In this document: positions 25,901 through 50,650 of the stretch, in pieces
Layout: each line of letters begins with the position of its first letter
Position numbering within the stretch: the stretch's first letter is position 1
Assembly (NCBI RefSeq): GCF_041886205.1
Contig: NZ_CP169029.1
Strand: one strand, 5' to 3'
DNA length: 64,000 nucleotides
Source of the DNA: Escherichia coli
GTDB taxonomy: Bacteria; Pseudomonadota; Gammaproteobacteria; Enterobacterales; Enterobacteriaceae
Position numbers and translations under genes: made by a program
Notes under the pieces: model-generated
What the model was told of the DNA's origin: nothing
Database searches by the model: none
The model's input: the letters and a program-made list of their open reading frames with translations, nothing else

Positions 25901-27392
25901 TGGCGTTCATGATCGCCGGAACGGAAAGCTCTGCCAGCGGGATCTCCGCCACCTGTTTGCGATCGCGCATGATGATCACCCGGTCGGCATAGCCCACCAG
26001 TTCTTCCAGTTCGGAGGAGATCACCAGCAGCGCCAGACCATCGGCGCATAGCGTTTCAATCAGGCGGATGATCTCGGCGTGGGCACCAACATCAATGCCG
26101 CGAGTTGGCTCATCAAGGATCAGAAATTGCGGTCGGGTCAGTAGCCAACGTGAAAGCAACACTTTTTGCTGATTGCCGCCAGAGAGAAATTCAATCGGTT
26201 GTTCAGTTGAAGGTGTGCGAATGCCAAGCTGGCGGATAAAGCGTTCGGCAATCTCTTGCTGTTCTTTGCGGGAAATGGGACGTAGCCAGCCGCGCTGGGC
26301 CTGGAGAGCGAGGATGATATTTTCCCGCACCGAGGCGGCAGCGATGATGCCATCGGTTTTCCTGTCTTCCGGGCAGAAGCCAATGCCCAGTACCGAAGCC
26401 TGATGTGGCGATCGCAGGTTTTGCGGTTTGCCTTTGATCAACGCCGTGCCGCTGTCAGCAGGTTTGATACCGAAGATCACTTCGGCGGTTTCGGTACGTC
26501 CTGATCCCAGCAATCCAGCCAGACCGACGATCTCGCCGGGGCGTACTTCGAGATCAAACGGTGCGATCGTTCCTTTTTTGCCGTAATTTTTGAACGCGGC
26601 AACGGGTTTGTCGCTCAACAATGTTCGCCCGGCACGCTGTAGCGCGTGGGTATCCAGCTCGCGCCCCAGCATCATTTTTACCAGTTCGATCTGCGGTAGC
26701 TCGCACGTTTCCCGACAGCCTACGAAACTGCCGTTGCGTAAGACGGTGATCCGATCGCTGACCTGATAGACCTGATCGAGAAAGTGAGTGACAAAAATCA
26801 GGCTGACGCCGCGATCGCGCAACTGACGCATCAGGTCAAACAGTAACTCCACTTCCTGGGTGTCGAGACTGGCGGTGGGTTCATCGAGGATCAGCACTTT
26901 GGCAGAGAGATCGATAGCCCGGCAAATAGCGACGATTTGCTGCATCGCGACTGAAAAGCGGTTGAGCGGTTCGCGCACGTCGAGGGAGAAACCGTAAGAT
27001 GCCATCAGTTCGGTGGCGCGCTTTTCCATCTCTTTGCGGCGTAGAAGGCCGAAGCGTTTGGGTTCGCGGCCTATAAATAGATTATCAGCGACCGACATAT
27101 TGGGTAGCAGGTTTACTTCCTGATAGACGGTGCCGATACCGAGTTGTTGTGCATGGGCGGTATTTTTCGGTGAGATAGCCTGGCCTTCCAGCCAGATGGT
27201 GCCGCGATCGGCGTGGTATACACCAGTTAATGCTTTGATTAGCGTTGATTTTCCTGCCCCGTTTTCACCGAGCAGCGCCATGATTTCGCCGCGGCGCAGG
27301 CTGAAATCAACGTTGTCTAACGCTTTGACGCCGGGGAAAAATTTACTTAATCCTTCGGTGCGGAGGATCTCCTGGTGTTGGTTAGTCGTCAT
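25890..27392 (-). CDS. ytfR: Galactofuranose ABC transporter ATP-binding protein YtfR (duplicated ABC domains)
   Basis: 500-aa ORF with two Walker A motifs (GENGAGKST, GLLGSGRTE). Confidence 0.94.
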   Translation of the reverse strand: MTTNQHQEILRTEGLSKFFPGVKALDNVDFSLRRGEIMALLGENGAGKSTLIKALTGVYHADRGTIWLEGQAISPKNTAHAQQLGIGTVYQEVNLLPNMSVADNLFIGREPKRFGLLRRKEMEKRATELMASYGFSLDVREPLNRFSVAMQQIVAICRAIDLSAKVLILDEPTASLDTQEVELLFDLMRQLRDRGVSLIFVTHFLDQVYQVSDRITVLRNGSFVGCRETCELPQIELVKMMLGRELDTHALQRAGRTLLSDKPVAAFKNYGKKGTIAPFDLEVRPGEIVGLAGLLGSGRTETAEVIFGIKPADSGTALIKGKPQNLRSPHQASVLGIGFCPEDRKTDGIIAAASVRENIILALQAQRGWLRPISRKEQQEIAERFIRQLGIRTPSTEQPIEFLSGGNQQKVLLSRWLLTRPQFLILDEPTRGIDVGAHAEIIRLIETLCADGLALLVISSELEELVGYADRVIIMRDRKQVAEIPLAELSVPAIMNAIAA

Positions 27393-27419
27393 GGTTTCCC
27401 CCGGTGTAAAGCGTGCTCC

Positions 27420-27520
27420 CAGTAGGCATGATAAGACGCGGTAAGCGTCGCATCAGGCTTCAGCGCACCACCGCCGGATGCGGCGCGAGCGCCTTATCCG
27501 GCCTACGAATCGGCATCAGG
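27420..27520. repeat. REP/BIME palindromic repeat cluster
   Basis: gccggatgcggcg...gccttatccggcctac units between ytfR and ytfQ. Confidence 0.7.
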
Positions 27521-27531
27521 CATAGCAACCC

Positions 27532-28488
27532 TCAATACCCCATATTTTTCTTCTTCTCTAACTCTTCTTTTGCGGTATCAGGCAGATAAAGGGTGGATTT
27601 GGTCAGCGTCAGCTTTTCAGGCATGGTGCCGTCTTTTTTGTATTTCTCCAGCGCGTCGAAGGCGGGACCTGCCATATTCGGCGTCAGTTCAACACTGGCG
27701 TTCGCTTCGCCATCAATCATCGCTTTGTAGATATCCGGTACGCCGTCGATAGAACCTGTCAGAATATCTTTGCCTGGTTTCAGGCCCGCTTCTTTAATTG
27801 CCTGAATTGCACCAATCACCATGTCGTCGTTATGGGCGTAAACCATGCAGATGTTTTTGCCGTTGTTTTCCGCTTTGATAAAGCTCTCCATGACTTCTTT
27901 GCCTTTACTGCGGGTGAAGTCACCTGACTGCGAGCGGATAATTTTGATATTTGGCGCATTCTTAATGGCTTCGGCAAAGCCTTTCTTACGGTCAATGGCG
28001 ACGCTGGCCCCAACAGTGCCCTGCAGCTCCACCACGTTGCATGGTTTGCCATTCACTTCTTTTACCAGCCAGTCACCAATCAACTTGCCTTCGAGAATGT
28101 TGTCGGCAGTGACGGTGGTCATATAGAGAGATTTGTCTTTCACATCAATAGAACGATCGAGCAAGAAGACCGGGATTTCGGCATCTTTCGCCTCTTTTAA
28201 TACCGGTTCCCAACCAGTCGCAACCACCGGAGCGATAAAGATCGCATCCACCCCTTGCGCGACGAAGGAACGTACCGCTTTAATCTGGTTTTCCTGCTTT
28301 TGCTGACCATCGGCAATTTTCAGCGTAATTCCGCGTTTTTCGGCCTCACTTTTCGCCACATTGGTTTCTGCGGCGCGCCAGCCAGATTCCGATCCGACCT
28401 GCGAAAATCCTACGGTTAATGGAGCGGCCAACGCCATAGACGACATGGCTGCCGAGACTGCAGAGACTACAAGTAAGCGTTTCCACAT
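27532..28488 (-). CDS. ytfQ: Galactofuranose-binding periplasmic protein YtfQ
   Basis: 318-aa ORF with signal peptide, K-12 synteny. Confidence 0.94.
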   Translation of the reverse strand: MWKRLLVVSAVSAAMSSMALAAPLTVGFSQVGSESGWRAAETNVAKSEAEKRGITLKIADGQQKQENQIKAVRSFVAQGVDAIFIAPVVATGWEPVLKEAKDAEIPVFLLDRSIDVKDKSLYMTTVTADNILEGKLIGDWLVKEVNGKPCNVVELQGTVGASVAIDRKKGFAEAIKNAPNIKIIRSQSGDFTRSKGKEVMESFIKAENNGKNICMVYAHNDDMVIGAIQAIKEAGLKPGKDILTGSIDGVPDIYKAMIDGEANASVELTPNMAGPAFDALEKYKKDGTMPEKLTLTKSTLYLPDTAKEELEKKKNMGY

Positions 28489-28797
28489 AGGGTTGTCCTC
28501 GTCGGGGTAATTATTATTGGTGAAAAGATGTTCGCGAAAAAACTATAGACAATTCGTTATGTAACGGATTGCGTTACATCACACTTCAAAGAAGTAAATA
28601 AAACGTTAATCACAAGTTTGTAATCGCTTTCATCTCACTATGAAAAATGCGGCTACGGTTATGGATTTTCCTGCTCTGTATACCGTCTTAAAATTGGCGA
28701 AAAAGGAAAATGAAGACGAAAACAAGCGAAGACATTCGGCGCGAGTTGGCTATAATACTCGGCACTTGTTTGCCACATATTTTTAAAGGAAACAGAC

Positions 28798-29329
28798 ATG
28801 AGCTTACTCAACGTCCCTGCGGGTAAAGATCTGCCGGAAGACATCTACGTTGTTATTGAGATCCCGGCTAACGCAGATCCGATCAAATACGAAATCGACA
28901 AAGAGAGCGGCGCACTGTTCGTTGACCGCTTCATGTCCACCGCGATGTTCTATCCGTGCAACTACGGTTACATCAACCACACCCTGTCTCTGGACGGTGG
29001 ACCCGGTTGACGTACTGGTCCCGACTCCGTACCCGCTGCAGCCGGGTTCTGTGATCCGTTGCCGTCCGGTTGGCGTTCTGAAAATGACCGACGAAGCCGG
29101 TGAAGATGCGAAACTGATTGCTGTTCCGCACACAAAGCTGAGCAAAGAATACGATCACATTAAAGACGTTAACGATCTGCCAGAGCTGCTGAAAGCGCAG
29201 ATCGCTCACTTCTTCGAGCACTACAAAGACCTCGAAAAAGGCAAGTGGGTGAAAGTTGAAGGTTGGGAAAACGCAGAAGCCGCTAAAGCTGAAATCGTTG
29301 CCTCCTTCGAGCGCGCAAAGAATAAATAA
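28798..29329 (+). pseudogene. ppa: Inorganic pyrophosphatase, reading frame broken by an apparent +1 insertion near 28999
   Basis: Track ORFs 28798..29010 and 28850..29329 are the N- and C-terminal halves of Ppa in different frames; span is 532 nt = 531 + 1. Extra G read in ...ctggacggtgGacccggtt. Confidence 0.9.
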
Positions 29330-29344
29330 GTTCTTATAGCGCAA

Positions 29345-29386
29345 TAACCCTGAACACCGGGCTTCGGTTAGTAAGGGTTTTTTTAT
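29345..29386 (+). terminator. Probable ppa terminator
   Basis: GC-rich imperfect hairpin followed by a T7 run downstream of the ppa stop. Confidence 0.4.
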
Positions 29387-29405
29387 GCCCGCGATAAATA
29401 AACAC

Positions 29406-29758
29406 TTATTCCACCACCGCCTGCAAGCGTAATAACGCCTCTTCCACCACCTCATCCGCAGCCAGACCAATACGCTTTGCCAGCCGGGCGCGTAGATCCA
29501 TCATCCGCACCTGATTAACCAGCACCACGCCGTGCACATCGCCTTCTTCGCAATGTAAAGGAACGCTAAATCCGGCATAACGGGCAAAATTTCCACACCC
29601 TGCGTAATGGGGGCCACCAGCGTCATTCCCAGTTGATTAAAGGCTTGAACGGAGAGCACAAGCGCAGGTCGACCAGCACCTTGCTGTTCATGGCCGCTTG
29701 CTGGATCAAAGCCAACCAGCACAATGTCTCCCCGTTCAAATTCACTTTTCTTTACCAT
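29406..29758 (-). pseudogene. chpB: ChpB (MazF-like) toxin, frame broken by an apparent 2-bp tandem duplication near 29585-29588
   Basis: Track ORF 29501..29758 matches ChpB through ...VAPITQG, then diverges; the remaining ChpB sequence continues in another frame to a stop near 29406. Confidence 0.85.
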
Positions 29759-30003
29759 ATTTCGTCACCCGCAGGGGTGGATTTACCCCAGACATCCTGC
29801 TCGCTAAGTTCCGCGGCGTTCATGTCACACTGTGCCAGCAGTTCATCAAGCGAGTAGCGCCTGGAGATGGGTGTCAGAATCAGTTGGTTGTTGCTCACCT
29901 GCGCTTCCACGCTCTGCCCCGGCTGTAAGTTAAGTTCTTTCATTACGATATTGGGAATGACCATACCTGCACTGTTCCCCCATCTTTTTATGGTAATACG
30001 CAT
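29752..30003 (-). CDS. chpS: ChpS antitoxin (MazE-like)
   Basis: 83 aa from the internal Met (MRITIKRWGNSAGMVIPNIVMKELNL...); appears intact. Confidence 0.9.
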   Translation of the reverse strand: MRITIKRWGNSAGMVIPNIVMKELNLQPGQSVEAQVSNNQLILTPISRRYSLDELLAQCDMNAAELSEQDVWGKSTPAGDEIW

Positions 30004-30017
30004 CTGCACCTCCTTAA

Positions 30018-30034
30018 GTTATACAAAGTATAAC
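30018..30034. promoter_or_regulatory. Palindrome upstream of chpS, candidate autoregulatory operator
   Basis: Perfect inverted repeat gttatacAAAgtataac just upstream of the chpS start. Confidence 0.4.
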
Positions 30035-30175
30035 TCACGGTGCTACAGGAAACGTTTTACCCCTGCGCATTTGTGAATGCCAGCAGAGTTTTTTATGCGT
30101 TAATAGATATGGAAAGCGGCTCGGAGAGAAAAGCAAAAGGTGAGGGAATTACAAAACAGAATGCGAGTCGTCTCG

Positions 30176-30218
30176 CAAAAAACAACGCCACCCGCGAAGG
30201 TGGCGTGCTTTTATTATT
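30176..30218. terminator. Hairpin with flanking A/T runs downstream of ytfP, probable bidirectional terminator
   Basis: cgccaccc-gcgaa-ggtggcg stem-loop with an A-run on one side and a T-rich run on the other. Confidence 0.55.
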
Positions 30219-30558
30219 ACTTATCCCTGTCTAACCAGTCGCCGCTTTCAATTAGCTTTAATCCATCGACGGGTCGTTGATAAACGTACATCCATGCACT
30301 CCCGTACGGCGTCTGAATCAACTGGCGCGCGTATTCACCGCCCCTGGTGCGCAAGGCATCAAGTTCGGCCAGCGTGGCGTTGTCAATACGATAAACTTCA
30401 CCGTGTACTGTTCCGTTCCCCGGAACTGCGCCTGGATAGTGGCCCAGGCTATACAACTGGTAGTTATCGATACTGAAATCGCCCAGTAACTGGGCATTGG
30501 TCATCCAGTGACTGTTGCCTTGTTTGTGGCGTAAACTGCCGTAGACAAATATTCGCAT
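30217..30558 (-). CDS. ytfP: Gamma-glutamylcyclotransferase-family protein YtfP
   Basis: 113-aa ORF, intact, K-12 synteny. Confidence 0.92.
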   Translation of the reverse strand: MRIFVYGSLRHKQGNSHWMTNAQLLGDFSIDNYQLYSLGHYPGAVPGNGTVHGEVYRIDNATLAELDALRTRGGEYARQLIQTPYGSAWMYVYQRPVDGLKLIESGDWLDRDK

Positions 30559-30560
30559 TG

Positions 30561-36126
<5,566 letters not shown>

Positions 36127-36289
36127 TTAAACGGCTTAACAAAAATCCAGTAATATGGATTAAAAAGCAGACTAAACCCCAAATATTTCTTATGTTTTAC
36201 TTTAGACCTATTCACGGTGGTTATTGTGTGCAAATACGCCTCTTGTTACAACCTTAACCCCAATGACCGATTTTCGGGAGAGCGACACC

Positions 36290-36931
36290 ATGAGTTTATT
36301 TGATAAAAAGCATCTGGTTTCCCCCGCCGATGCCCTGCCTGGACGTAACACCCCGATGCCCGTAGCCACGCTGCATGCGGTCAACGGTCACTCAATGACC
36401 AATGTACCTGACGGAATGGAGATTGCCATTTTTGCGATGGGTTGTTTCTGGGGTGTGGAGCGTCTGTTCTGGCAGTTACCCGGCGTTTACAGCACCGCCG
36501 CAGGCTATACCGGCGGCTATACGCCAAAAAATCCGACTTATCGGGAAGTGTGCTCCGGTGATACGGGTCATGCCGAAGCGGTACGCATTGTTTACGATCC
36601 TTCCGTCATCAGCTATGAGCAGTTGCTACAGGTATTTTGGGAGAATCACGATCCCGCCCAGGGAATGCGTCAGGGCAATGACCACGGCACGCAGTATCGT
36701 TCAGCGATTTATCCGCTGACCCCAGAACAGGATGCCGCAGCTCGCGCCAGTCTGGAACGTTTTCAGGCGGCGATGCTTGCCGCCGATGACGATCGTCGCA
36801 TCACCACGGAAATCGCTAACGCCACACCGTTTTATTATGCCGAAGATGACCACCAGCAATATCTGCATAAAAACCCGTATGGTTACTGTGGAATTGGCGG
36901 AATTGGCGTCTGTCTGCCGCCGGAAGCATAG
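36290..36931 (+). CDS. msrA: Peptide methionine sulfoxide reductase A
   Basis: GCFWG active-site motif; open throughout. 213 codons here versus 212 aa remembered for K-12, possibly an in-frame 3-bp A-run expansion near 36526-36531. Confidence 0.92.
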
Positions 36932-36977
36932 CGTTACGGGTACAAATGTAGATTGTCGATAAAGTGCTATTTGTCTA

Positions 36978-37078
36978 TGCCGGATGCGGCGTAAACGCCT
37001 TACCAGGCCTACAAAATCGTCCAAATTCAATATATTGCATGGACTGCGTAGGCGGCCTGATCGGCATAGCGCATCAGG
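36978..37078. repeat. REP/BIME palindromic repeat cluster
   Basis: gccggatgcggcgtaaacgcctta(t)ccaggcctac-like units between msrA and ytfL. Confidence 0.65.
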
Positions 37079-37256
37079 CAGTTTTGCATTTATTAGCAGC
37101 CTGAATTTTAACCCTCTGGCGGCTTTACAGTACCTTACGCTATACTAGCCACTGAAAATGCCGGTTCACTTTCTTCGAATCGGCTTTCAATGTGTATTTC
37201 ACACAAATTAATCAACTTCCCCTTCCGAGGATCTGGCCTGAAAGGTCGGATAAGAT

Positions 37257-38603
37257 ATGTTAAACAGTATTTTAGTCATACTCTGCTTGATCGCTGTAAG
37301 TGCGTTCTTCTCGATGTCCGAGATCTCACTTGCCGCCTCACGCAAAATCAAACTTAAACTGCTGGCTGATGAAGGCAATATAAATGCCCAACGCGTTCTG
37401 AATATGCAGGAAAATCCCGGCATGTTCTTTACCGTGGTCCAAATCGGTCTGAACGCAGTGGCGATTCTCGGCGGTATCGTCGGTGATGCGGCATTTTCTC
37501 CAGCTTTTCACAGCCTGTTCTCCCGCTATATGTCGGCAGAGCTCTCTGAGCAACTGAGCTTTATTCTCTCTTTCTCGTGTTAGTGACTGGCATGTTTATC
37601 CTGTTTGCGGATTTAACCCCGAAACGCATCGGTATGATTGCGCCAGAAGCTGTGGCTTTGCGTATCATCAACCCGATGCGCTTCTGCCTGTACGTTTGCA
37701 CCCCGCTGGTGTGGTTCTTCAACGGCCTGGCGAACATGATCTTCCGTATTTTCAAACTGCCAATGGTACGTAAAGATGACATCACTTCTGATGACATCTA
37801 CGCGGTAGTGGAAGCCGGTGCGCTGGCGGGCGTGTTACGTAAACAGGAACACGAGCTGATTGAAAACGTCTTTGAGCTGGAATCCCGAACCGTTCCGTCT
37901 TCAATGACACCGCGTGAAAACGTGATTTGGTTTGATCTCCACGAAGATGAGCAAAGTCTGAAGAATAAGGTGGCGGAACATCCGCACTCTAAGTTCCTCG
38001 TCTGTAATGAAGATATTGACCACATCATCGGCTATGTCGATTCTAAAGACCTGCTGAACCGCGTGCTGGCTAACCAAAGCCTGGCACTGAACAGCGGCGT
38101 ACCAAATTCGCAACACGCTGATTGTGCCGGATACGTTAACCCTTTCAGAGGCGTTGGAAAGTTTTAAAACCGCAGGTGAAGACTTCGCGGTGATCATGAA
38201 CGAGTACGCGCTGGTGGTGGGGATCATCACCCTCAACGACGTGATGACCACGCTGATGGGCGATCTGGTCGGTCAGGGTCTGGAAGAGCAGATTGTCGCC
38301 CGTGATGAGAACTCATGGCTGATTGACGGCGGCACTCCGATTGACGACGTCATGCGCGTGCTGGATATTGACGAGTTCCCGCAGTCGGGCAACTACGAAA
38401 CCATCGGCGGCTTTATGATGTTTATGCTGCGTAAGATCCCGAAACGCACCGATTCGGTGAAATTCGCCGGCTACAAATTTGAAGTGGTGGATATCGATAA
38501 CTACCGCATCGACCAGCTGCTGGTGACCCGGATCGACAGCAAGGCCACCGCCCTTTCGCCAAAACTGCCTGACGCTAAAGATAAAGAAGAAAGCGTCGCG
38601 TAA
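37257..38603 (+). pseudogene. ytfL: CNNM/CorC-family membrane protein YtfL (DUF21 + CBS + CorC-HlyC), two apparent frameshifts
   Basis: Three track ORFs (37257..37583, 37577..38167, 38124..38603) tile the YtfL sequence; 2-bp dup near 37577-37580 and +1 C near 38102-38103. Confidence 0.87.
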
Positions 38604-38664
38604 CCCCCAGAAACATCAACGGCTCCTGAATCAGGAGCCGTCTTATTACTGCATAGCACTTTGG

Positions 38665-38871
38665 TTAAGCCATCTCTGTTTGCAGACGCATAACCTGACG
38701 GTTAACTTCGGACATCACTGACAAATGCAGCTTATCCTTCACTTTTGGGATAAGAATCTTACCCTTATCAAATTCAAAAGCGCCAACGTCCTTGATGTAT
38801 AACCGTCCACGGAACAGGATCTTTACGTACTTCGCCACCTGAAGTGGGTTGTACCGTTGGAAAATTTTCAT
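38665..38871 (-). CDS. ytfK: Small protein YtfK (DUF1107)
   Basis: 68 aa from the internal Met ([30 protein letters not shown]...), intact. Confidence 0.9.
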
Positions 38872-39198
38872 TGTTATCTCCTGCTGAGTATTACGCCTGT
38901 GCGGTGCCACAATCGGCCCAACTATTATGAGGCGCAAATTTTAATGCTTAGTGACTATAGACTATCCGGGCAATGTTTCCACCGCGTATAACTTTTTTTA
39001 CCTAAAGGTTACAATTATTCAGAATTATCTTTTTACCGAAGCGCGGTCTTCAGTATAAGCATTCATTTTTCATATGATTTGTGCGCTTGACCGCAAACTG
39101 GCATCACACTTGCGGGAAATTCGATAAATAGCACATATTATGATTAAAACTCAGACCCAAGTGGTCGGATCACCTGCATATCATAAGAAGGAAACACC

Positions 39199-39755
39199 AT
39201 GACCCTACGCAAGATTCTGGTACTCACCTGCCTGCTGTTGCCGATGATGGCTTCCGCACATCAGTTCGAAACCGGTCAGCGAGTGCCGCCGATTGGCATT
39301 ACCGATCGTGGCGAGTTGGTGCTTGATAAAGATCAGTTTAGCTACAAAACCTGGAACAGCGCGCAGTTAGTGGGAAAAGTGCGAGTACTGCAACATATTG
39401 CTGGTCGCACCTCTGCAAAAGAGAAAAACGCGACGCTGATTGAAGCGATTAAATCAGCGAAGTTACCGCACGATCGTTACCAGACCACCACCATTGTTAA
39501 CACCGACGACGCAATTCCGGGTTCCGGCATGTTTGTGCGCAGCAGTCTGGAGAGTAATAAAAAGCTTTATCCCTGGTCGCAGTTTATTGTCGATAGCAAT
39601 GGCGTCGCGCGCGGTGCCTGGCAGCTGGATGAAGAAAGTTCCGCTGTGTAGTGGTGCTGGATAAGGATGGTCGCGTGCAATGGGCCAAAGACGGGGCGCT
39701 CACTCAGGAAGAGGTGCAGCAAGTGATGGACCTGCTGCAAAAGTTGCTCAAATAA
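39199..39755 (+). pseudogene. ytfJ: Periplasmic protein YtfJ, truncated at residue 150 by an apparent 2-bp tandem duplication near 39645-39648
   Basis: Track ORF stops at 39651 after ...EESSAV; the rest of YtfJ (VVLDKDGRVQWAKDG...QKLLK) continues in the +2 frame to about 39755. Span is 557 nt = 555 + 2. Confidence 0.85.
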
Positions 39756-39817
39756 TGGCAACAACATAGAGTCTGCAAAAATAATATTCCCCTGTCGATA
39801 CCTATGGGATAGGGGAA

Positions 39818-40783
39818 TTAAGTGTATGAGTTCTTACGCCGAACTAATACTGGTAACGCTAGTTGCTCTTTTTTAAACGCCTCAATGGTAGATTTATATT
39901 TCTCGCAAATCTCCTCTTCGGTAATATCACTATCTACCGCCAGATTCGCACTTACTATCGCATCCACTTGTTCGGCTAATTCCACTTGTTGGCAACCTGC
40001 ATTAACCAGAAAATTATAAATAAGAGAGTAATCTTCATCCTCCAAAACAACAAAGGAACCATTACGAAAACGTTCATCCCCTCCATAGATTGTAAGTACA
40101 GAGCCCAAAGATTCTATGACTATGGCAAAATTATCATCAATTATTTTTTCGTAAATAAATATACCATCCATCGCATTCTTTAATTCCACCTCCTGGTATT
40201 TGGAGTTCAAATTTACCCCGTTTTAATTTGCTTACTATATCCTCCAATAAGGCATAACCTAAAGACACGTCACCAAACGCCTGGCGAATATAACCTTTAA
40301 TCCTTTTCGGTATGTCAGACTGTTTTTTCGGTATGTCAGACTGTTTTTTCTGTAAAATATCCCAGGCATACAATCTTCTGTTTTGTTCTAACGGAAACTC
40401 GCGGTTTTTGAAATCCATGAATGAGTTATACTCATTTATTGTTATGGGAATTTCTTCGTATTCAAACCCACTGCCTCGCAATGTCATTGTATATTCGGCA
40501 CCGTTATCTTTAAGGCTGAAACTGATAAGAAACTTATCCATGGCGTTAACAGTTTCATTTTTTGATGAAAGTACCTGATAACTATTTTTATCAATCTGAG
40601 TTGCGCAACGAAAGAACTCCCTCAAAGTTAAGAGGCTATCATAATTCGAAACCCAATCTTTTTCCCTCCTAAATGCATGCTGAATATTATTAAAAAATTG
40701 TTTGAATGTGTTTTTGTATGCGATGATTTTACAAATAACTCCACCGCACCAATAAAATTATTGTGTCTGATCCTGGGTAACAT
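39818..40783 (-). pseudogene. ytfI: AT-rich uncharacterized protein YtfI, split into at least two or three frames
   Basis: Track ORFs 39818..40210 and 40137..40625 overlap in different frames; an in-frame ATG further upstream (about 40781-40783) opens a third frame that runs into a stop near 40630. Confidence 0.7.
40304..40345. repeat. Perfect 21-bp tandem duplication inside ytfI
   Basis: ttttcggtatgtcagactgtt occurs twice head-to-tail, encoding the repeated heptapeptide KKQSDIP. Confidence 0.8.
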
Positions 40784-40994
40784 ATGGCCACCTTATTTTA
40801 TTTGGTTATTTTATGTCGCCATTAAATATCTCATTATAGAAGTAAACTATCAAAAAACGCTCATTATTAAAATGTAACTTATTAGCAATTGAATTTTTGC
40901 ACTTTAAATACAATCTCTTTTTATTTATAACTTTTTAGGTTGGGAGAAATCAGGATGGCAGAATCAGGAAATACACTGTTTCTGCCATCTGAAT

Positions 40995-41742
40995 TTAGTA
41001 AATAGACACTCTGAACCCCGGATTCAGGAACGACTCGCGCGGAGTGTAATCCAGCGGTTTACCCTGCCAGTCGTGAACGTGCGCTCCGGCAGCTGCAGCC
41101 ACAGCATGTCCAGCGGCGGTGTCCCAAATATTCGTTGGTCCGAAGCGCGGGTACAGCTGCGCCTGTCCTTCCGCCACCACCAGGCAGAATTTCAGCGAAG
41201 AGCCGATGGACGTGGTCTGATGTTCGCCAAGCTGTTGCAGATACTCTTTCAGCTCCGCATCTGCATGGGAACGGCTGATAACCACCAGCGGCGGGCGCGC
41301 ATCGCGGACCTGAATCTGCTTGCGCACACCGCACTCTTCTTTCCAGGCTTTACCTTCTGCCGCGCTGTACATTACGTTCATTACCGGCGCATACACCACA
41401 CCTAAAATCGGTTTGCCGTGATCGATGAGCGCAATGTTAACGGTGAATTCGCCATTACGTTTAATAAACTCTTTAGTACCATCCAGCGGGTCTACCAGCC
41501 AGTAACGCTGCCAGTGCTGACGGACTTCCCAACCGGGAGGATCTTCTTCAGAAAGGACCGGAATATCCGGTGTCAGCGTACGTAAACCGTCCATGATAAC
41601 GGTGTGTGCGGCAATATCCGCTGCCGTTACCGGAGAATTGTCCGCTTTGCTGACGACGTCCATCGGTTTCGCCCCGTCGTAGACCTACCTGCATAATGGC
41701 ATCGCCTGCATTCCGTGCAAGCTGGCATACTTGATCTAACAT
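40995..41742 (-). pseudogene. cysQ: 3'(2'),5'-bisphosphate nucleotidase CysQ, frame broken by an apparent 4-bp tandem duplication near 41683-41690
   Basis: Track ORF 41548..41742 matches CysQ through ...GDAIMQV then diverges; ORF 40995..41663 carries the rest ([20 protein letters not shown]...). Plus-strand acctacct reads as a doubled acct. Confidence 0.87.
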
Positions 41743-41922
41743 TTCTCCACCTCGTCTCTGTGAGCGGTGTTAACTTATTGTTTTACTTATACCCTATCGT
41801 TAATGAATGCGCCAACTGTGATAGTGTCATCATTTTCAAAGCGTAAAATTGTGGCATTCTTCACTGTTCTATAAGTAAGACGTTTATTCTCCCTTTTCTT
41901 TCGTATTCCCGATGATAAAAGG

Positions 41923-43882
41923 ATGTCCCTGATGATTAAGTTTAGCGCAACGCTCCTGGCCACGCTGATTGCCGCCAGTGTGAATGCAGCGACGGTCGAT
42001 CTGCGTATCATGGAAACCACTGATCTGCATAGCAACATGATGGATTTCGATTATTACAAAGACACCGCCACGGAAAAATTCGGACTGGTACGTACGGCAA
42101 GCCTGATTAACGATGCCCGCAATGAAGTGAAAAACAGCGTACTGGTCGATAACGGCGATTTGATTCAGGGGAGTCCACTGGCCGATTACATGTCGGCGGC
42201 GAAAGGATTAAAAGCAGGTGATGTTCATCCGGTTTATAAGGCGCTGAATACGCTGGATTACACGGTCGGTACACTCGGCAATCATGAATTTAACTACGGT
42301 CTGGATTACCTGAAAAATGCGCTGGCGGGAGCGAAATTCCCTTATGTAAATGCCAACGTCATTGACGCCAGAACCAAACAGCCAATGTTTACACCGTATT
42401 TAATTAAAGATACCGAAGTGGTCGATAAAGACGGAAAAAAACAGACGCTGAAGATTGGCTATATTGGCGTCGTGCCGCCGCAAATCATGGGCTGGGATAA
42501 AGCTAATTTATCCGGAAAAGTGACGGTGAATGATATTACCGAAACCGTGCGCAAATACGTGCCTGAAATGCGCGAGAAAGGTACCGATGTCGTTGTCGTT
42601 CTGGCGCATTCCGGGCTATCTGCCGATCCGTATAAAGTGATGGCGGAAAACTCAGTTTATTACCTCAGTGAAATTCCTGGCGTTAACGCCATTATGTTTG
42701 GCCATATGCTCACGCCGTTTTCCCAGGTAAAGATTTTGCTGATATCGAAGGGGCTGATATCGCGAAAGGCACGCTGAATGGTGTTCCGGCGGTAATGCCG
42801 GGCATGTGGGGCGATCATCTTGGGGTGGTCGACTTACAACTCAGTAATAACAGCGGTAAATGGCAGGTGACGCAGGCGAAAGCGGAAGCACGGCCGATTT
42901 ACGACATCGCCAATAAAAAATCCCTCGCGGCGGAAGACAGCAAGCTGGTAGAAACACTCAAAGCCGATCACGATGCCACACGCCAGTTCGTCAGCAAGCC
43001 AATCGGTAAATCCGCCGACAATATGTATAGCTATCTGGCGCTGGTGCAGGACGATCCGACCGTGCAGGTGGTGAACAACGCGCAAAAAGCGTATGTCGAG
43101 CATTACATTCAGGGCGATCCGGATCTGGCAAAACTGCCGGTGCTTTCAGCTGCTGCACCGTTTAAAGTTGGTGGTCGCAAAAATGATCCGGCAAGCTATG
43201 TGGAGGTGGAAAAAAGGCCAGTTGACCTTCCGTAATGCCGACGATCTTTATCTCTACCCCAATACGCTGATTGTGGTGAAAGCCAGCGGTAAAGAGGTGA
43301 AAGAGTAGCTGGAGTGCTCCGCCGGACAGTTTAACCAGATTGATCCTGACAACACGAAACCACAGTCACTCATCAACTGGGATGGTTTCCGCACCTATAA
43401 CTTTGATGTGATTGATGGTGTGAATTATCAGATTGATGTTACCCAGCCTGCCCGTTATGACGGCGAGTGCCAGATGGTTAATGCCAATGCGGAAAGGATT
43501 AAGAACCTGACCTTTAATGGCAAGCCGATTGATCCGAACGCCATGTTCCTGGTTGCCACCAATAACTATCGCGCTTACGGCGGCAAATTTGCCGGTACGG
43601 GCGACAGCCATATCGCTTTTGCTTCACCGGATGAGAACCGCTCGGTGCTGGCAGCGTGGATTGCTGATGAGTCGAAACGTGCGGGGGAAATTCACCCGGC
43701 GGCAGATAACAACTGGCGTTTTAGCACCGATAGCTGGCGATAAGAAACTGGATATCCGTTTCGAAACCTCTCCATCAGATAAAGCCGCGGCGTTTATTAA
43801 AGAGAAAGGGCAATATCCGATGAATAAAGTCGCGACCGATGATATCGGGTTTGCGATTTATCAGGTGGATTTGAGTAAGTAA
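41923..43882 (+). pseudogene. cpdB: 2',3'-cyclic-nucleotide 2'-phosphodiesterase / 3'-nucleotidase CpdB, four disruptions
   Basis: Fragments 41923..42777, 42795..43235, 43093..43308, 43408..43743 and 43517..43882. Apparent 2-bp dup near 42704-42707, +1 A near 43210-43215, in-frame TAG at 43306-43308 where Trp is expected, +1 T near 43729-43732. Confidence 0.87.
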
Positions 43883-43909
43883 TACACTTCTTTTTCGGCC
43901 TATAAATCA

Positions 43910-44000
43910 TCAACCGCATCCGGCACTTTTGTCGGATGCGATGCTGGCGCATCTTATCCGCCCTACAAGTCATGAACCGTAGGCCGGATAAGCGCAGCCG
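43910..44000. repeat. REP/BIME palindromic repeat cluster
   Basis: gcatccggc...gccggataagcg-type palindromes between cpdB and ytfH. Confidence 0.65.
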
Positions 44001-44004
44001 GCAG

Positions 44005-44385
44005 TTATGCCGCACGTTCATCCCGCACCGCCAACACCTCGGGCAAATTCAACTCAATCCAGTCCGCCAGTGCAGCAACCTTTTCGCTCACCTGCTCGCC
44101 CAGCGGCGTGAGGCTATATTCCACATGCGGCGGCACCACCGGATACGCGATACGGTTAAGAAAACCATCCTGTTCTAACGCCTGTAACGACTGCGCAAGC
44201 ATCTTTTCACTCACCCCACCGATTTTGCGCCGCAGGTCGCTAAAGCGATGAGTACCTTCGCGTAGCGCCACCAGAATCAACACCCCCCAACGGCTGGTGA
44301 CGTGTTTCAACACCTCGCGCGACGGGCACTGTTCCGCAAAGAGATTACCCTCTTTCAGTTGTTGTGACAGGCTAACCTGACTCAT
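44005..44385 (-). CDS. ytfH: HxlR-type HTH transcriptional regulator YtfH
   Basis: 126 aa from the internal Met (MSQVSLSQQLKEGNLFAEQCPSREVL...); divergent from ytfG. Confidence 0.9.
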   Translation of the reverse strand: MSQVSLSQQLKEGNLFAEQCPSREVLKHVTSRWGVLILVALREGTHRFSDLRRKIGGVSEKMLAQSLQALEQDGFLNRIAYPVVPPHVEYSLTPLGEQVSEKVAALADWIELNLPEVLAVRDERAA

Positions 44386-44473
44386 TTCATACTTACCTTT
44401 TTGTACGTACTTACTAAAAGTAAGTTTAGGTGTTAGCGTATTTAAACACAAGACAAAACGATGGAGACTTCCC

Positions 44474-45334
44474 ATGATCGCTATTACTGGTGCCACTGGC
44501 CAACTTGGTCACTATGTTATTAAATCCTTGATGAAAACGGTTCCTGCCAGCCAAATAGTGGCTATCGTTCGTAATCCGGCAAAAGCCCAGGCACTGACAG
44601 CACAAGGCATTACCGTGCGTCAGGCTGACTACGGCGATGAAGCCGCACTGACATCTGCACTTCAGGGAGTGGAAAAACTACTGCTGATCTCTTCCAGCGA
44701 AGTGGGTCAACGTGCCCCGCAGCATCGTAATGTTATTAATGCCGCAAAGACGGCTGGCGTGAAATTTATCGCTTATACCAGTCTGCTTCACGCGGATAAA
44801 TCTCCGCTCGGCCTCGCCGATGAGCACATCGAGACGGAGAAAATGTTGGCTGATTCTGGCATCGTTTACACCCTGCTGCGCAACGGCTGGTACACCGAAA
44901 ACTATCTCGCCAGCGCCCCGGCAGCACTGGAGCACGGCGTATTTATCGGTGCCGCGGGCGATGGCAAAATTGCCTCGGCAACGCGGGCAGATTATGCGGC
45001 AGCTGCGGCACGCGTGATTAGCGAAGCCGGTCACGAAGGCAAGGTTTACGAGCTGGCGGGCGATAGTGCCTGGACGTTGACACAGTTAGCGGCAGAGCTG
45101 ACCAAACAGAGCGGCAAACAGGTTACCTATCAAAATCTGAGCGAAACCGATTTCGCTGCGGCGCTGAAAAGCGTTGGCCTGCCTGACGGACTGGCGGATA
45201 TACTGGCGGATTCTGACGTTGGCGCATCGAAAGGCGGTCTGTTTGATGACAGCAAAACGCTGAGCAAATTGATTGGCCGCCCAACGACAACGTTAGCCGA
45301 AAGCGTAAGCCATCTTTTTAATGTTAATAAATAG
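44474..45334 (+). CDS. ytfG: NAD(P)H:quinone oxidoreductase YtfG (NmrA-like)
   Basis: 286-aa ORF with N-terminal GxxGxxG Rossmann motif (MIAITGATGQLGHYV). Confidence 0.93.
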   Translation: MIAITGATGQLGHYVIKSLMKTVPASQIVAIVRNPAKAQALTAQGITVRQADYGDEAALTSALQGVEKLLLISSSEVGQRAPQHRNVINAAKTAGVKFIAYTSLLHADKSPLGLADEHIETEKMLADSGIVYTLLRNGWYTENYLASAPAALEHGVFIGAAGDGKIASATRADYAAAAARVISEAGHEGKVYELAGDSAWTLTQLAAELTKQSGKQVTYQNLSETDFAAALKSVGLPDGLADILADSDVGASKGGLFDDSKTLSKLIGRPTTTLAESVSHLFNVNK

Positions 45335-45442
45335 TTAATTAAAGTGGCATCCTCCCGCATCCTCTCTGATAATGACGGGATGCCGGGAGCAATCATGTCT
45401 GCTTCCTGAACGTTTCTTCTGACAGACCAATGGATGCCAGTA

Positions 45443-46408
45443 ATGATTAGCGGCGTGCTGTACGCCCTGTTAGCAGGGTTGATGTGGGGGCTTATTTTTG
45501 TCGGGCCGTTGATCGTGCCGGAATACCCGGCGATGTTGCAGTCGATGGGGCGTTATCTGGCGTTAGGGTTAATTGCGCTACCCATTGCCTGGCTGGGACG
45601 CGTGCGTCTGCGTCAGTTGGCGCGTCGCGACTGGCTTACCGCCTTGATGCTCACTATGATGGGCAACCTCATCTATTACTTCTGCCTTGCCAGTGCCATT
45701 CAACGTACTGGCGCGCCTGTTTCTACGATGATTATTGGCACCCTGCCGGTGGTCATTCCTGTCTTTGCCAATCTGCTTTATAGCCAGCGCGACGGCAAAC
45801 TCGCGTGGGGAAAACTCGCCCCGGCACTGATTTGTATTGGCATCGGCCTGGCGTGTGTGAATATTGCTGAGTTAAACCACGGACTCCCCGATTTTGACTG
45901 GGCACGTTATACCTCTGGCATCGTGCTAGCGTTAGTTTCCGTGGTCTGCTGGGCATGGTATGCCCTGCGCAACGCCCGCTGGCTGCGGGAAAATCCCGAC
46001 AAACATCCGATGATGTGGGCGACGGCGCAGGCGCTGGTCACGCTGCCGGTTTCTCTCATCGGCTATCTCGTCGCCTGTTACTGGCTGAATATACAAACGC
46101 CGGACTTCTCCTTACCTTTTGGCCCCCGTCCGCTGGTGTTTATTAGTCTGATGGTTGCGATAGCCGTGCTTTGCTCATGGGTTGGCGCACTCTGCTGGAA
46201 CGTCGCCAGCCAGCGATTACCGACAGTGATTCTCGGGCCGCTGATCGTTTTCGAAACACTGGCAGGTTTGCTGTACACCTTTTTGATACGCCAGCAAATG
46301 CCGCCGCTGATGACGCTGAGCGGTATCGCGCTGTTAGTGGTTGGCGTGGTCATTGCAGTCAGAGCAAAACCGGAAAAGCCTTTAACTGAATCTGTCTCAG
46401 AAAGTTGA
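45443..46408 (+). CDS. ytfF: Inner membrane EamA/DMT-family transporter YtfF
   Basis: Polytopic membrane ORF; start set at the internal Met (about 321 aa). Confidence 0.9.
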   Translation: MISGVLYALLAGLMWGLIFVGPLIVPEYPAMLQSMGRYLALGLIALPIAWLGRVRLRQLARRDWLTALMLTMMGNLIYYFCLASAIQRTGAPVSTMIIGTLPVVIPVFANLLYSQRDGKLAWGKLAPALICIGIGLACVNIAELNHGLPDFDWARYTSGIVLALVSVVCWAWYALRNARWLRENPDKHPMMWATAQALVTLPVSLIGYLVACYWLNIQTPDFSLPFGPRPLVFISLMVAIAVLCSWVGALCWNVASQRLPTVILGPLIVFETLAGLLYTFLIRQQMPPLMTLSGIALLVVGVVIAVRAKPEKPLTESVSES

Positions 46409-50469: not shown

Positions 50470-50650
50470 TACGTCTGGCTTCCAGTGCCTGGGGGGAAAC
50501 CATACTGATATGTTGACATCCTCCACGCCCTGAAGGACGTGGATCCCTGCTACGTTCAGGCTGTCGCCTGAATCATTTCGGTGGGTTCCTGCTTCAACGA
50601 GCGGCCTGACTGCACCATCTCTCCACAGGCAAGAACGGCGTGCCCCGCCG
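50470..50650 (-). ncRNA. Predicted omega-RNA (TnpB guide RNA) overlapping the tnpB 3' end and the adjacent IS end
   Basis: Inferred only from the known architecture of TnpB systems; structured hairpin-containing sequence lies just downstream of the tnpB stop. Confidence 0.25.

Follow-up and report, generated by a model that had tools for sequence, protein, structure and literature searches.

Are the genes that lie broken side by side in a 15 kb block of this Escherichia coli chromosome decayed, deliberately altered or wrongly assembled? The window, a stretch of 64,000 nucleotides from contig NZ_CP169029.1, shows split reading frames in its ORF track only between ~28.8 and 43.9 kb. The original prediction described a block of fragmented genes with clean flanks, and preferred a technical or engineered origin to natural pseudogenisation. 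As reference for the list of lesions we used the closest relative, E. coli wlxctx60 (NZ_AP045833.1; 99.85% identity, ~50 kb aligned). Base-by-base alignment of window positions 12000-62314 with this genome confirmed the block, placing 24 indels, all of them inside 28999-43719, and none in ~33 kb of aligned flank. By length alone, the chance of all 24 falling inside the block is ~1.6e-12. Comparison of window positions 1-24000 with strain CH4784 gave two indels, neither of them gene-breaking in the window.

All 24 lesions are insertions, and each is a perfect tandem duplication of 1-4 bp, adding 54 bp in total. A test of whether every indel is a tandem duplication had been proposed for this alignment, and the answer was 24 of 24. 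The expectation that most lesions would be short tandem duplications therefore held, whereas the one or two deletions expected among them did not appear: no deletion relative to the lineage was found among the 24 indels aligned to wlxctx60. Duplications of 1, 2 and 3 bp occur seven times each and those of 4 bp three times, so that the reading frame is kept at the seven lesions of 3 bp. About half of the lesions lie in non-repetitive context.

The lesions are given here in window coordinates, with no strand assigned to any of them. The first, an extra G at 28999..28999, shifts the frame of ppa at about codon 67; the essentiality of this gene was reportedly established by Chen et al. in 1990 and by the Keio collection. 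An extra CA (29594..29595) frameshifts chpB, and an extra CG (30193..30194) lies between chpS and ytfP. Three frameshifts follow in tamB, by an extra TC (32213..32214) and two single Cs (32774..32774 and 33338..33338). The frame of tamA is shifted by G (34426..34426), GA (34950..34951) and, in non-repetitive context, CCTG (35999..36002), while GGA (35474..35476) is a multiple of three. The msrA gene, thought to be untouched, was found to carry an in-frame AAA (36526..36528) that adds one lysine. An extra GGC (37051..37053) lies between msrA and paeA; in paeA (ytfL) itself GT (37577..37578) shifts the frame and C (38102..38102) regains the original one (2+1 = 3). Upstream of ytfJ lies an intergenic TAT (39136..39138), and within ytfJ a frameshifting TG (39645..39646). 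Next come TAAA (40152..40155) and CCT (40665..40667) in ytfI, a natural pseudogene of the lineage even without them, and then CCA (41174..41176, in frame) and ACCT (41683..41686, a frameshift in non-repetitive context) in cysQ. In cpdB, an in-frame CGG (42194..42196) is followed by frameshifts from AT (42704..42705), A (43210..43210) and T (43719..43719), the last lesion. The lesions fall without regard to genes, reading frame or surrounding sequence: three lie outside genes (30193, 37051 and 39136), the lengths of seven are multiples of three, and the essential ppa is struck.

Deleting the 24 extra copies returns ppa, chpB, tamB, tamA, msrA, paeA/ytfL, ytfJ and cysQ to full length, and the only genes still broken are two natural lineage pseudogenes, cpdB and ytfI. 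The first of these carries an in-frame TAG at codon 457 (W457*, window 43306-43308) and the second a frameshift, both common to wlxctx60 and many other assemblies; judged from this sequence comparison, they are older, natural features of the lineage. The TAG had been counted among the lesions of the block, where it does not belong. Nine genes had been listed as broken by the block; since the TAG and the ytfI frameshift are lineage-wide, only seven of the nine owe their state to the lesions alone. The prediction had also named shared broken frames in close relatives as evidence against it. Such sharing extends to these two features and to none of the 24 lesions.

The same correction restores colinearity with other genomes. 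Without the 24 copies no other gaps separate the window from wlxctx60, and five of six independent lineage assemblies align with zero gaps over 12.0-21.0 kb, the sixth having one 1-bp gap outside the block. None of the six contains the lesions, and none of the 24 junctions was found among 5,426 complete E. coli genomes. Substitutions are not elevated, with one private substitution in the ~12 kb of block covered by lineage relatives. The lengthened MsrA+Lys product (213 aa) exactly matches one NCBI protein only, XGC72620.1 / WP_374028426.1, and the PGAP-annotated chromosome encoding it also carries four rare alleles from the flanks of the window; the lesions therefore belong to a public NCBI deposit and were not introduced into the window afterwards.

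Equal spacing, the decisive property of these lesions, was overlooked in the original prediction. Computed after left/right normalisation of the duplications, the spacing is quasi-crystalline: 596 and 596 bp, 561 and 561 bp, then ~522.5 bp seven times and ~506.4 bp nine times. In un-mutated coordinates the lesions form the arithmetic runs 29000/29596/30192 and 32210/32771/33332, followed by a run of 8 points with a step of 522.1-522.8 and one of 10 points with a step of 506.0-506.9. Equal spacing holds to within 1-2 bp, and the fractional steps look like rounded values of L/n. In 200,000 random placements the minimum spacing of at least 504 bp was never reached, and never more than 4 consecutive spacings matched to within 5 bp, whereas the real lesions show 16 of 22. 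That the first lesion stands at exactly 29000 in window coordinates is a coincidence without explanation.

Extrapolated to their ends, neighbouring runs come together at nodes without a lesion. At window position 33903..33903, the segment boundary common to the 561-bp and 522.5-bp runs, the end nodes of the two runs overlap (33889-33895 versus 33894-33897, un-mutated), and nothing unusual was seen in the local sequence. Another pair nearly meets, at 38597-38599 versus 38601-38605, and the third pair misses by at least 1.3 bp. Further silent nodes would lie near window positions 28404, 30793, 31654, 38627 and 44228. From this we infer a patch of ~15.8 kb (28404..44228, both outer ends extrapolated from the lattice) made of five contiguous segments of ~2384, 861, 2244, 4705 and 5575 bp un-mutated. 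By the same extrapolation the segments would divide into 4, 1, 4, 9 and 11 equal tiles, the single 861-bp tile being suggested by its lesion-free nodes. These tile counts equal floor(L/x) only for x of 476.8-506.8, a range that includes 500, and a rule of floor(L/500) equal windows fits all five spans.

Duplication size also follows the lattice, being larger the farther a lesion lies from a silent node (Spearman 0.72-0.74, p ~6e-5, 13 of 200,000 permutations), a gradient that was noticed post hoc. In a toy simulation, proportional cutting of reads carrying 0.05-0.5% indels gave hump-shaped overlaps with a mean of 2-5 bp and zero overlap at no more than 0.1% of simulated nodes, and its output correlated with the observed duplication sizes (Pearson 0.73-0.75).

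Taken together, these data indicate that the 24 lesions are very probably computational junction artefacts of the deposited assembly, left in a patch rebuilt by window-wise consensus, and not mutations of the organism. The windowed mechanism and its 500-bp rule are what we infer from the lesions, lattice, size gradient, absence elsewhere and public record. A patch of ~15.8 kb on the 4,855,826-bp chromosome that encodes XGC72620.1 would have been rebuilt piecewise from five contiguous spans, each with an anchor at either end. These would have been cut individually into floor(L/500) equal windows, giving 596, 861, 561, 522.5 and 506.4 bp, and a consensus made for each window before the windows were concatenated. 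Because the input sequences would differ by a few indels, proportional cut points would scatter about each true boundary, with zero scatter at the anchors and a maximum in mid-span, much as in a Brownian bridge; each window consensus would therefore overrun its neighbour by 1-4 bases. Concatenation would then duplicate the overrun bases, leaving each interior boundary with a perfect tandem duplication and the anchors clean, and gene callers would read the junctions as frameshifts in ppa, chpB, tamB, tamA, paeA, ytfJ, cysQ, ytfI and cpdB. This marks the broken genes, the essential ppa included, as false pseudogenes, except for the natural lesions of cpdB and ytfI. The block is a unique, non-repetitive region, and nothing in its sequence accounts for special treatment or for the choice of anchors.

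The technical side of the original prediction is thus strongly supported by the lattice, the restriction to insertions, the absence of a substitution excess, the private junctions and the restored colinearity, and the best fit among the options it offered is a low-quality or chimeric assembly segment. Its mention of an uncorrected long-read consensus, read as random errors of an unpolished or low-coverage assembly that survived in the block and broke its genes, fares poorly. In its favour, the block is about as long as a single long read (15-16 kb), gene fragmentation is a classic sign that a long-read assembly was left unpolished, an ENA 'polypolish' contig (L009) has random fragmentation of cpdB and qorB, and two of the seven 1-bp insertions sit in runs of 4-5 identical bases. 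However, random placement would produce neither exact lattices nor duplication sizes graded from silent nodes. Such errors should bring deletions and substitutions, of which we saw zero and one private SNP respectively, and a homopolymer bias, whereas ACCT, CCTG, GGA and TAT were duplicated in non-repetitive context. We regard this explanation as highly improbable. Deliberate alteration, by in-silico editing as a test or watermark or by synthesis of a 15.8-kb segment from ~500-600 bp blocks with junction scars, is also very unlikely, if somewhat less so. It would account for rule-based positions obtained by equal division, for sizes limited to 1-4 bp whose counts (7, 7, 7, 3) fit a uniform draw (chi-square p = 0.57), for a first lesion at exactly window coordinate 29000, and for a lattice that is exact in un-mutated coordinates, as if an intact template had been edited. 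Yet the sizes follow distance from the segment ends and are not independent draws; the MsrA+Lys variant is present in a PGAP-annotated NCBI chromosome sharing the rare alleles of the window; the block holds no recoding, watermark or vector sequence, with one private SNP relative to relatives; and a frameshift in the sole ppa gene is incompatible with a viable strain. A design for killing genes is at odds with three intergenic lesions and seven of length 3, and with 10 of the 24 lesions leaving every frame intact, the deliberately mutated sequence that had been considered is unlikely.

It also should be considered that the duplications could be physical in the DNA of the isolate, whether from synthetic or in-vitro-assembled blocks of ~500-600 bp or from a periodic duplication process. 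Survival of the strain would then depend on ppa function provided from another source, and we give this a slimmer chance than random read error. Least credible of all, to the point of being nearly dismissed, is genuine localised decay or hypermutation, for instance by slippage-type tandem duplication in an island of relaxed selection. Slippage does produce short tandem duplications as a genuine type of mutation, cpdB and ytfI are true pseudogenes in the lineage, and the record passed deposition. Against these points stand spacings equal to within 1-2 bp, 24 insertions to 0 deletions, no excess of substitutions, a hit in the essential ppa, lesions seen in 0 of 5,426 genomes and 0 of 6 lineage assemblies, and coding and non-coding sequence struck alike.

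The window-junction origin that we prefer has parallels among known systems. Long-read consensus and polishing tools leave boundary artefacts at windows or chunks, as with the 500-bp windows of Racon or Arrow and the chunk stitching of neural polishers. The present errors resemble these in being small indels tied to computational windows of ~500 bp, independent of genes and gone when relatives are compared. Windows in common polishers, Racon and Arrow among them, have a fixed length of 500 bp, whereas here the period varies from one anchored span to the next as L/floor(L/500), giving 596, 561, 522.5 and 506.4 bp. Unlike in the known window artefacts, every interior boundary is struck, by duplications only, with sizes graded from the anchors and within one 15.8-kb patch. 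No published tool that divides spans equally by floor(L/500) was found in the literature, and the HASLR papers describe no such equal-window rule. The false pseudogenes of long-read assemblies, which NCBI quality control flags as a frameshifted-protein problem, are similar in that conserved genes are split, corrections of 1-4 bp restore them, and the assembly is at fault; typically, though, they are genome-wide, random, homopolymer-biased and rich in deletions, while those seen here occupy one region at periodic positions, consist of insertions alone and for the most part avoid homopolymers. Reductive decay, as in Shigella, Mycobacterium leprae and recent symbionts, likewise leaves many adjacent frameshifted genes, and the block does include two genuine lineage pseudogenes. 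Such decay mixes deletions, insertion sequences, stops and substitutions, is irregular, spares essential genes and is shared with relatives, none of which holds for these lesions. Finally, transposable elements leave short direct duplications of 2-4 bp as target-site duplications or excision footprints. These have a fixed length per element and flank an element or did so in the past, whereas here 1-4 bp are duplicated at periodic positions with no element. The window does hold one real target-site duplication, GTTG on the flanks of an IS3-family insertion in yjfZ.

The relevance of these findings lies in data quality. A GenBank/RefSeq chromosome would hold a 15.8-kb patch in which 24 false insertions create seven false pseudogenes, among them the TamAB translocation module and the essential ppa, as well as a single false protein variant: MsrA+Lys, for which a separate WP_ accession and UniRef entry exist. 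Analyses of pan-genomes, pseudogene content and gene essentiality that use this genome inherit the errors. The combination of insertion-only tandem duplications, L/floor(L/500) spacing and anchor-graded size is a signature that can be scanned for, and it could flag other affected records and trace the responsible software. For the organism itself the 24 lesions would have no biological meaning; the natural pseudogenes cpdB W457* and ytfI belong to the lineage and should not be discarded along with the artefacts.

Fragmentation of the genes from ppa to cpdB, predicted to be limited to ~28.8-43.9 kb, was confirmed by an ORF survey (minimum length 80 aa, with long ORFs normal elsewhere in the window) and by alignment to a close relative. 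Of 5,426 complete E. coli genomes searched by megablast, 5,354 contained all of window 27000-46000, at a best identity of just 99.7%, and the best match, strain wlxctx60 (NZ_AP045833.1), became the reference for base-by-base alignment. From window 12000 to 62314 the two sequences are 99.85-99.98% identical with a single IS-sized interruption, and the alignment contains 24 indels, all inside a block at 28999-43719. Every one of them is an insertion in the window and a perfect tandem duplication, of 1 bp (n = 7), 2 bp (n = 7), 3 bp (n = 7) or 4 bp (n = 3), 54 bp in sum. By simple arithmetic, length alone would place all 24 in the block with a probability of ~1.6e-12, and all would be insertions with a probability of ~6e-8 assuming that insertions and deletions are equally likely. 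Substitutions relative to wlxctx60 are not enriched, with three within the block and six outside. A comparison of window 1-24000 with a second strain, CH4784, gave two indels only, neither of them gene-breaking in the window. A 531-aa 'DNA-binding protein' ORF on the minus strand (1521-3116), in a region of low GC (40-45%), is intact in the window and frameshifted in CH4784 (a C6 versus C5 run at 2991).

Deleting the 24 extra copies regained full-length ORFs for ppa, chpB, tamB, tamA, msrA, paeA/ytfL, ytfJ and cysQ. Three of the 24 lesions are intergenic and seven have a length that is a multiple of three. The msrA gene is still open, as predicted, yet carries one added in-frame lysine, and the two paeA lesions (2 + 1 bp) bring that gene back to its original frame. 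Since ppa is essential in E. coli, an isolate carrying the frameshift near codon 67 of this gene could not be viable. Two genes remain broken after lesion removal, cpdB by one internal stop (TGG to TAG at codon 457, window 43306-43308, common to wlxctx60) and ytfI (39818-40783) by a frameshift that is also annotated in wlxctx60. Both are annotated as pseudogenes in that strain, and 138 blocks of the public collection contain the 456-aa CpdB fragment; the two defects are thus natural lineage features unrelated to the artefact. Of the lesion types originally described, the tandem duplications stand; the in-frame TAG is present but natural, and the deletions, absent among the 24 insertions, are probably explained by the same natural defects. 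A 239-aa YtfI fragment is called in assemblies of the lineage and a 303-aa product in some other E. coli (L004).

Further relatives were picked via the natural CpdB fragment, the restored TamA allele being too common. Six independent assemblies carrying the cpdB TAG (ENA metagenome scaffolds, NCBI drafts and one Logan assembly) all encode intact TamA, MsrA, PaeA, YtfJ and CysQ. They align to the restored window over 12.0-21.0 kb from position 31885 onward in un-mutated coordinates, the numbering after removal of the extra copies, with 3-19 mismatches each; five have no gap and the sixth has one 1-bp gap, outside the block. Where these relatives cover the block, just one substitution is private to the window, at 40789 (un-mutated 40749) between ytfI and cysQ; the window has C and seven of seven compared relatives have T, at a site away from the lattice nodes described below. 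There is thus no substitution-level sign of mutagenesis or relaxed selection in the covered block. The lineage also shares an IS609 element (IS200/IS605 family; ~50.5-52.4 kb, with tnpA and a 402-aa tnpB ORF at 50556-51764), common to wlxctx60, which splits a TetR/AcrR-family gene and holds the majority of SNPs between lineage members (un-mutated 50546-52151). An IS3-family element (IS1203/IS629-like) in yjfZ (52984-54293, ORFs 53038-53364 and 53361-54251), with a GTTG direct repeat on both sides, is a strain-specific marker, as it is not present in wlxctx60 or in three of the lineage assemblies (L011-L013); its exact junction pattern had zero matches in genome_contigs and metagenome_contigs.

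The lesion junctions were likewise searched for in the public record, using 24 N-separated oligos with which an un-duplicated genome is unable to give a 28-nt seed. No match was returned from 20,395 records of the 5,426 complete E. coli genomes, a set that does not include the window's own source chromosome, and exact-pattern searches of genome_contigs and metagenome_contigs for one lesion junction gave zero matches. With its added lysine, the 213-aa MsrA product exactly matches one public protein (XGC72620.1 / WP_374028426.1) on a single contig; this AAA lesion at least belongs to the deposited, PGAP-annotated chromosome and, by parsimony, so do all 24. Exact look-up of the frameshifted products (the tamB N-fragment and eight others) returned nothing relevant, probably because PGAP marks such genes as pseudogenes without products. 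The 159-aa C-terminal fragment of PaeA, found in 86 contigs, was uninformative, arising non-specifically from any upstream frameshift. Rare flank alleles are carried by 14 contigs only (the exact 531-aa DNA-binding protein), 18 (MgtA), 19 (YagU) and 181 (BdcR).

The spacing of the lesions is highly regular. Each duplication has several equivalent placements, which were normalised and the rightmost taken in un-mutated coordinates. This gave one run at 29000, 29596 and 30192, a second at 32210, 32771 and 33332, a third of eight points from 34419 to 38076, and a fourth of ten points from 39111 to 43669. By linear programming every run fits an exact arithmetic progression, with steps of 594.5-597, 559.5-562.5, 522.14-522.83 and 506.0-506.89 bp respectively, the fractional steps behaving like rounded L/n. 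Extrapolated by one step, the second and third runs meet at one lesion-free node (33889-33895 versus 33894-33897), and the third and fourth nearly coincide (38597-38599 versus 38601-38605). When 24 points were placed at random 200,000 times, the minimum spacing never reached 504 bp, and at most four consecutive spacings agreed within 5 bp, compared with 16 of 22 observed. The simplest description is of five contiguous spans of ~2384, 861, 2244, 4705 and 5575 bp with 4, 1, 4, 9 and 11 equal tiles, in which each boundary between two tiles of a span bears a duplication. The span ends, extrapolated to about window 28404, 30793, 31654, 33903, 38627 and 44228, are free of lesions and unremarkable in sequence. 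These tile counts equal floor(L/x) only when x is 476.8-506.8, a range that includes 500. The lattice is exact in un-mutated and not in mutated coordinates. One equivalent placement of the first duplication (window 28999/29000) is exactly 29000, which may be coincidence or, if windows are cut at multiples of 1000, reflect round contig coordinates. Other arrangements fared poorly: single-lattice and smoothly chirped models both fail, as the 2018-bp gap fits neither three nor four intermediate steps and spacing within runs is flat; placement relative to genes (gene-length fractions or same-strand gene runs) gave no fit; and, by reasoning, fixed 500-bp polisher windows, 256-bp bins or 512-byte buffers would not yield 596, 561 and 522.5 together.

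Duplication size is also patterned, running 1, 2, 3, 4, 3, 3, 2, 1 along the nine-tile span. Across all spans, size correlates with distance to the nearest lesion-free node and with the Brownian-bridge SD, sqrt(x(L-x)/L) (Spearman rho 0.72-0.74), a correlation equalled by 13 of 200,000 permutations for a trend spotted post hoc. Such a gradient would be the expected outcome if a number of sequences with small indel differences were anchored at the two ends of a span and each cut proportionally into n parts. Cut points would scatter most in mid-span, the consensus of each window would over-run its neighbour, and the overlap would be written twice on concatenation. In a toy simulation (30 reads, indel rates of 0.05-0.5%, several coverage rules) overlaps were zero in at most 0.1% of nodes, were hump-shaped with a mean of 2-5 bp, and matched the observed sizes with a Pearson correlation of 0.73-0.75, which supports proportional cutting. 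We regard this specific anchored equal-window consensus mechanism as plausible and, on balance, slightly favoured; no software or tool with equal-window spans was found in the literature, and the HASLR papers describe no such rule.

The technical origin preferred in the original prediction is supported by the lattice spacing, the exclusive presence of insertions and the restored colinearity. The defining features of natural gene decay, transposon footprints, purposeful engineering and random read error were absent. Random long-read error is exemplified by an unrelated long-read assembly (ENA ERZ27273522, contig_1_polypolish), where cpdB lies in three pieces and qorB in two, with ytfK and chpB also affected; that fragmentation is irregular, whereas the window pattern is periodic. 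The nearest known category is the window-boundary error of long-read consensus or polishing and, more broadly, the false pseudogenes due to indel errors in long-read assemblies. Unlike that category with its fixed window, the block has a period of L/floor(L/500) for each anchored span, affects each interior boundary, contains duplications exclusively, grades their size from the anchors, and is confined to a single patch of 15.8 kb in unique, non-repetitive sequence. The feature is almost certainly a non-biological artefact of the construction of the deposited sequence, and its best explanation, a very probable one, is that the lesions are computational junction artefacts in the deposited assembly. 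Its value accordingly lies in database hygiene and in tracing a software fault, and not in the biology of the organism.
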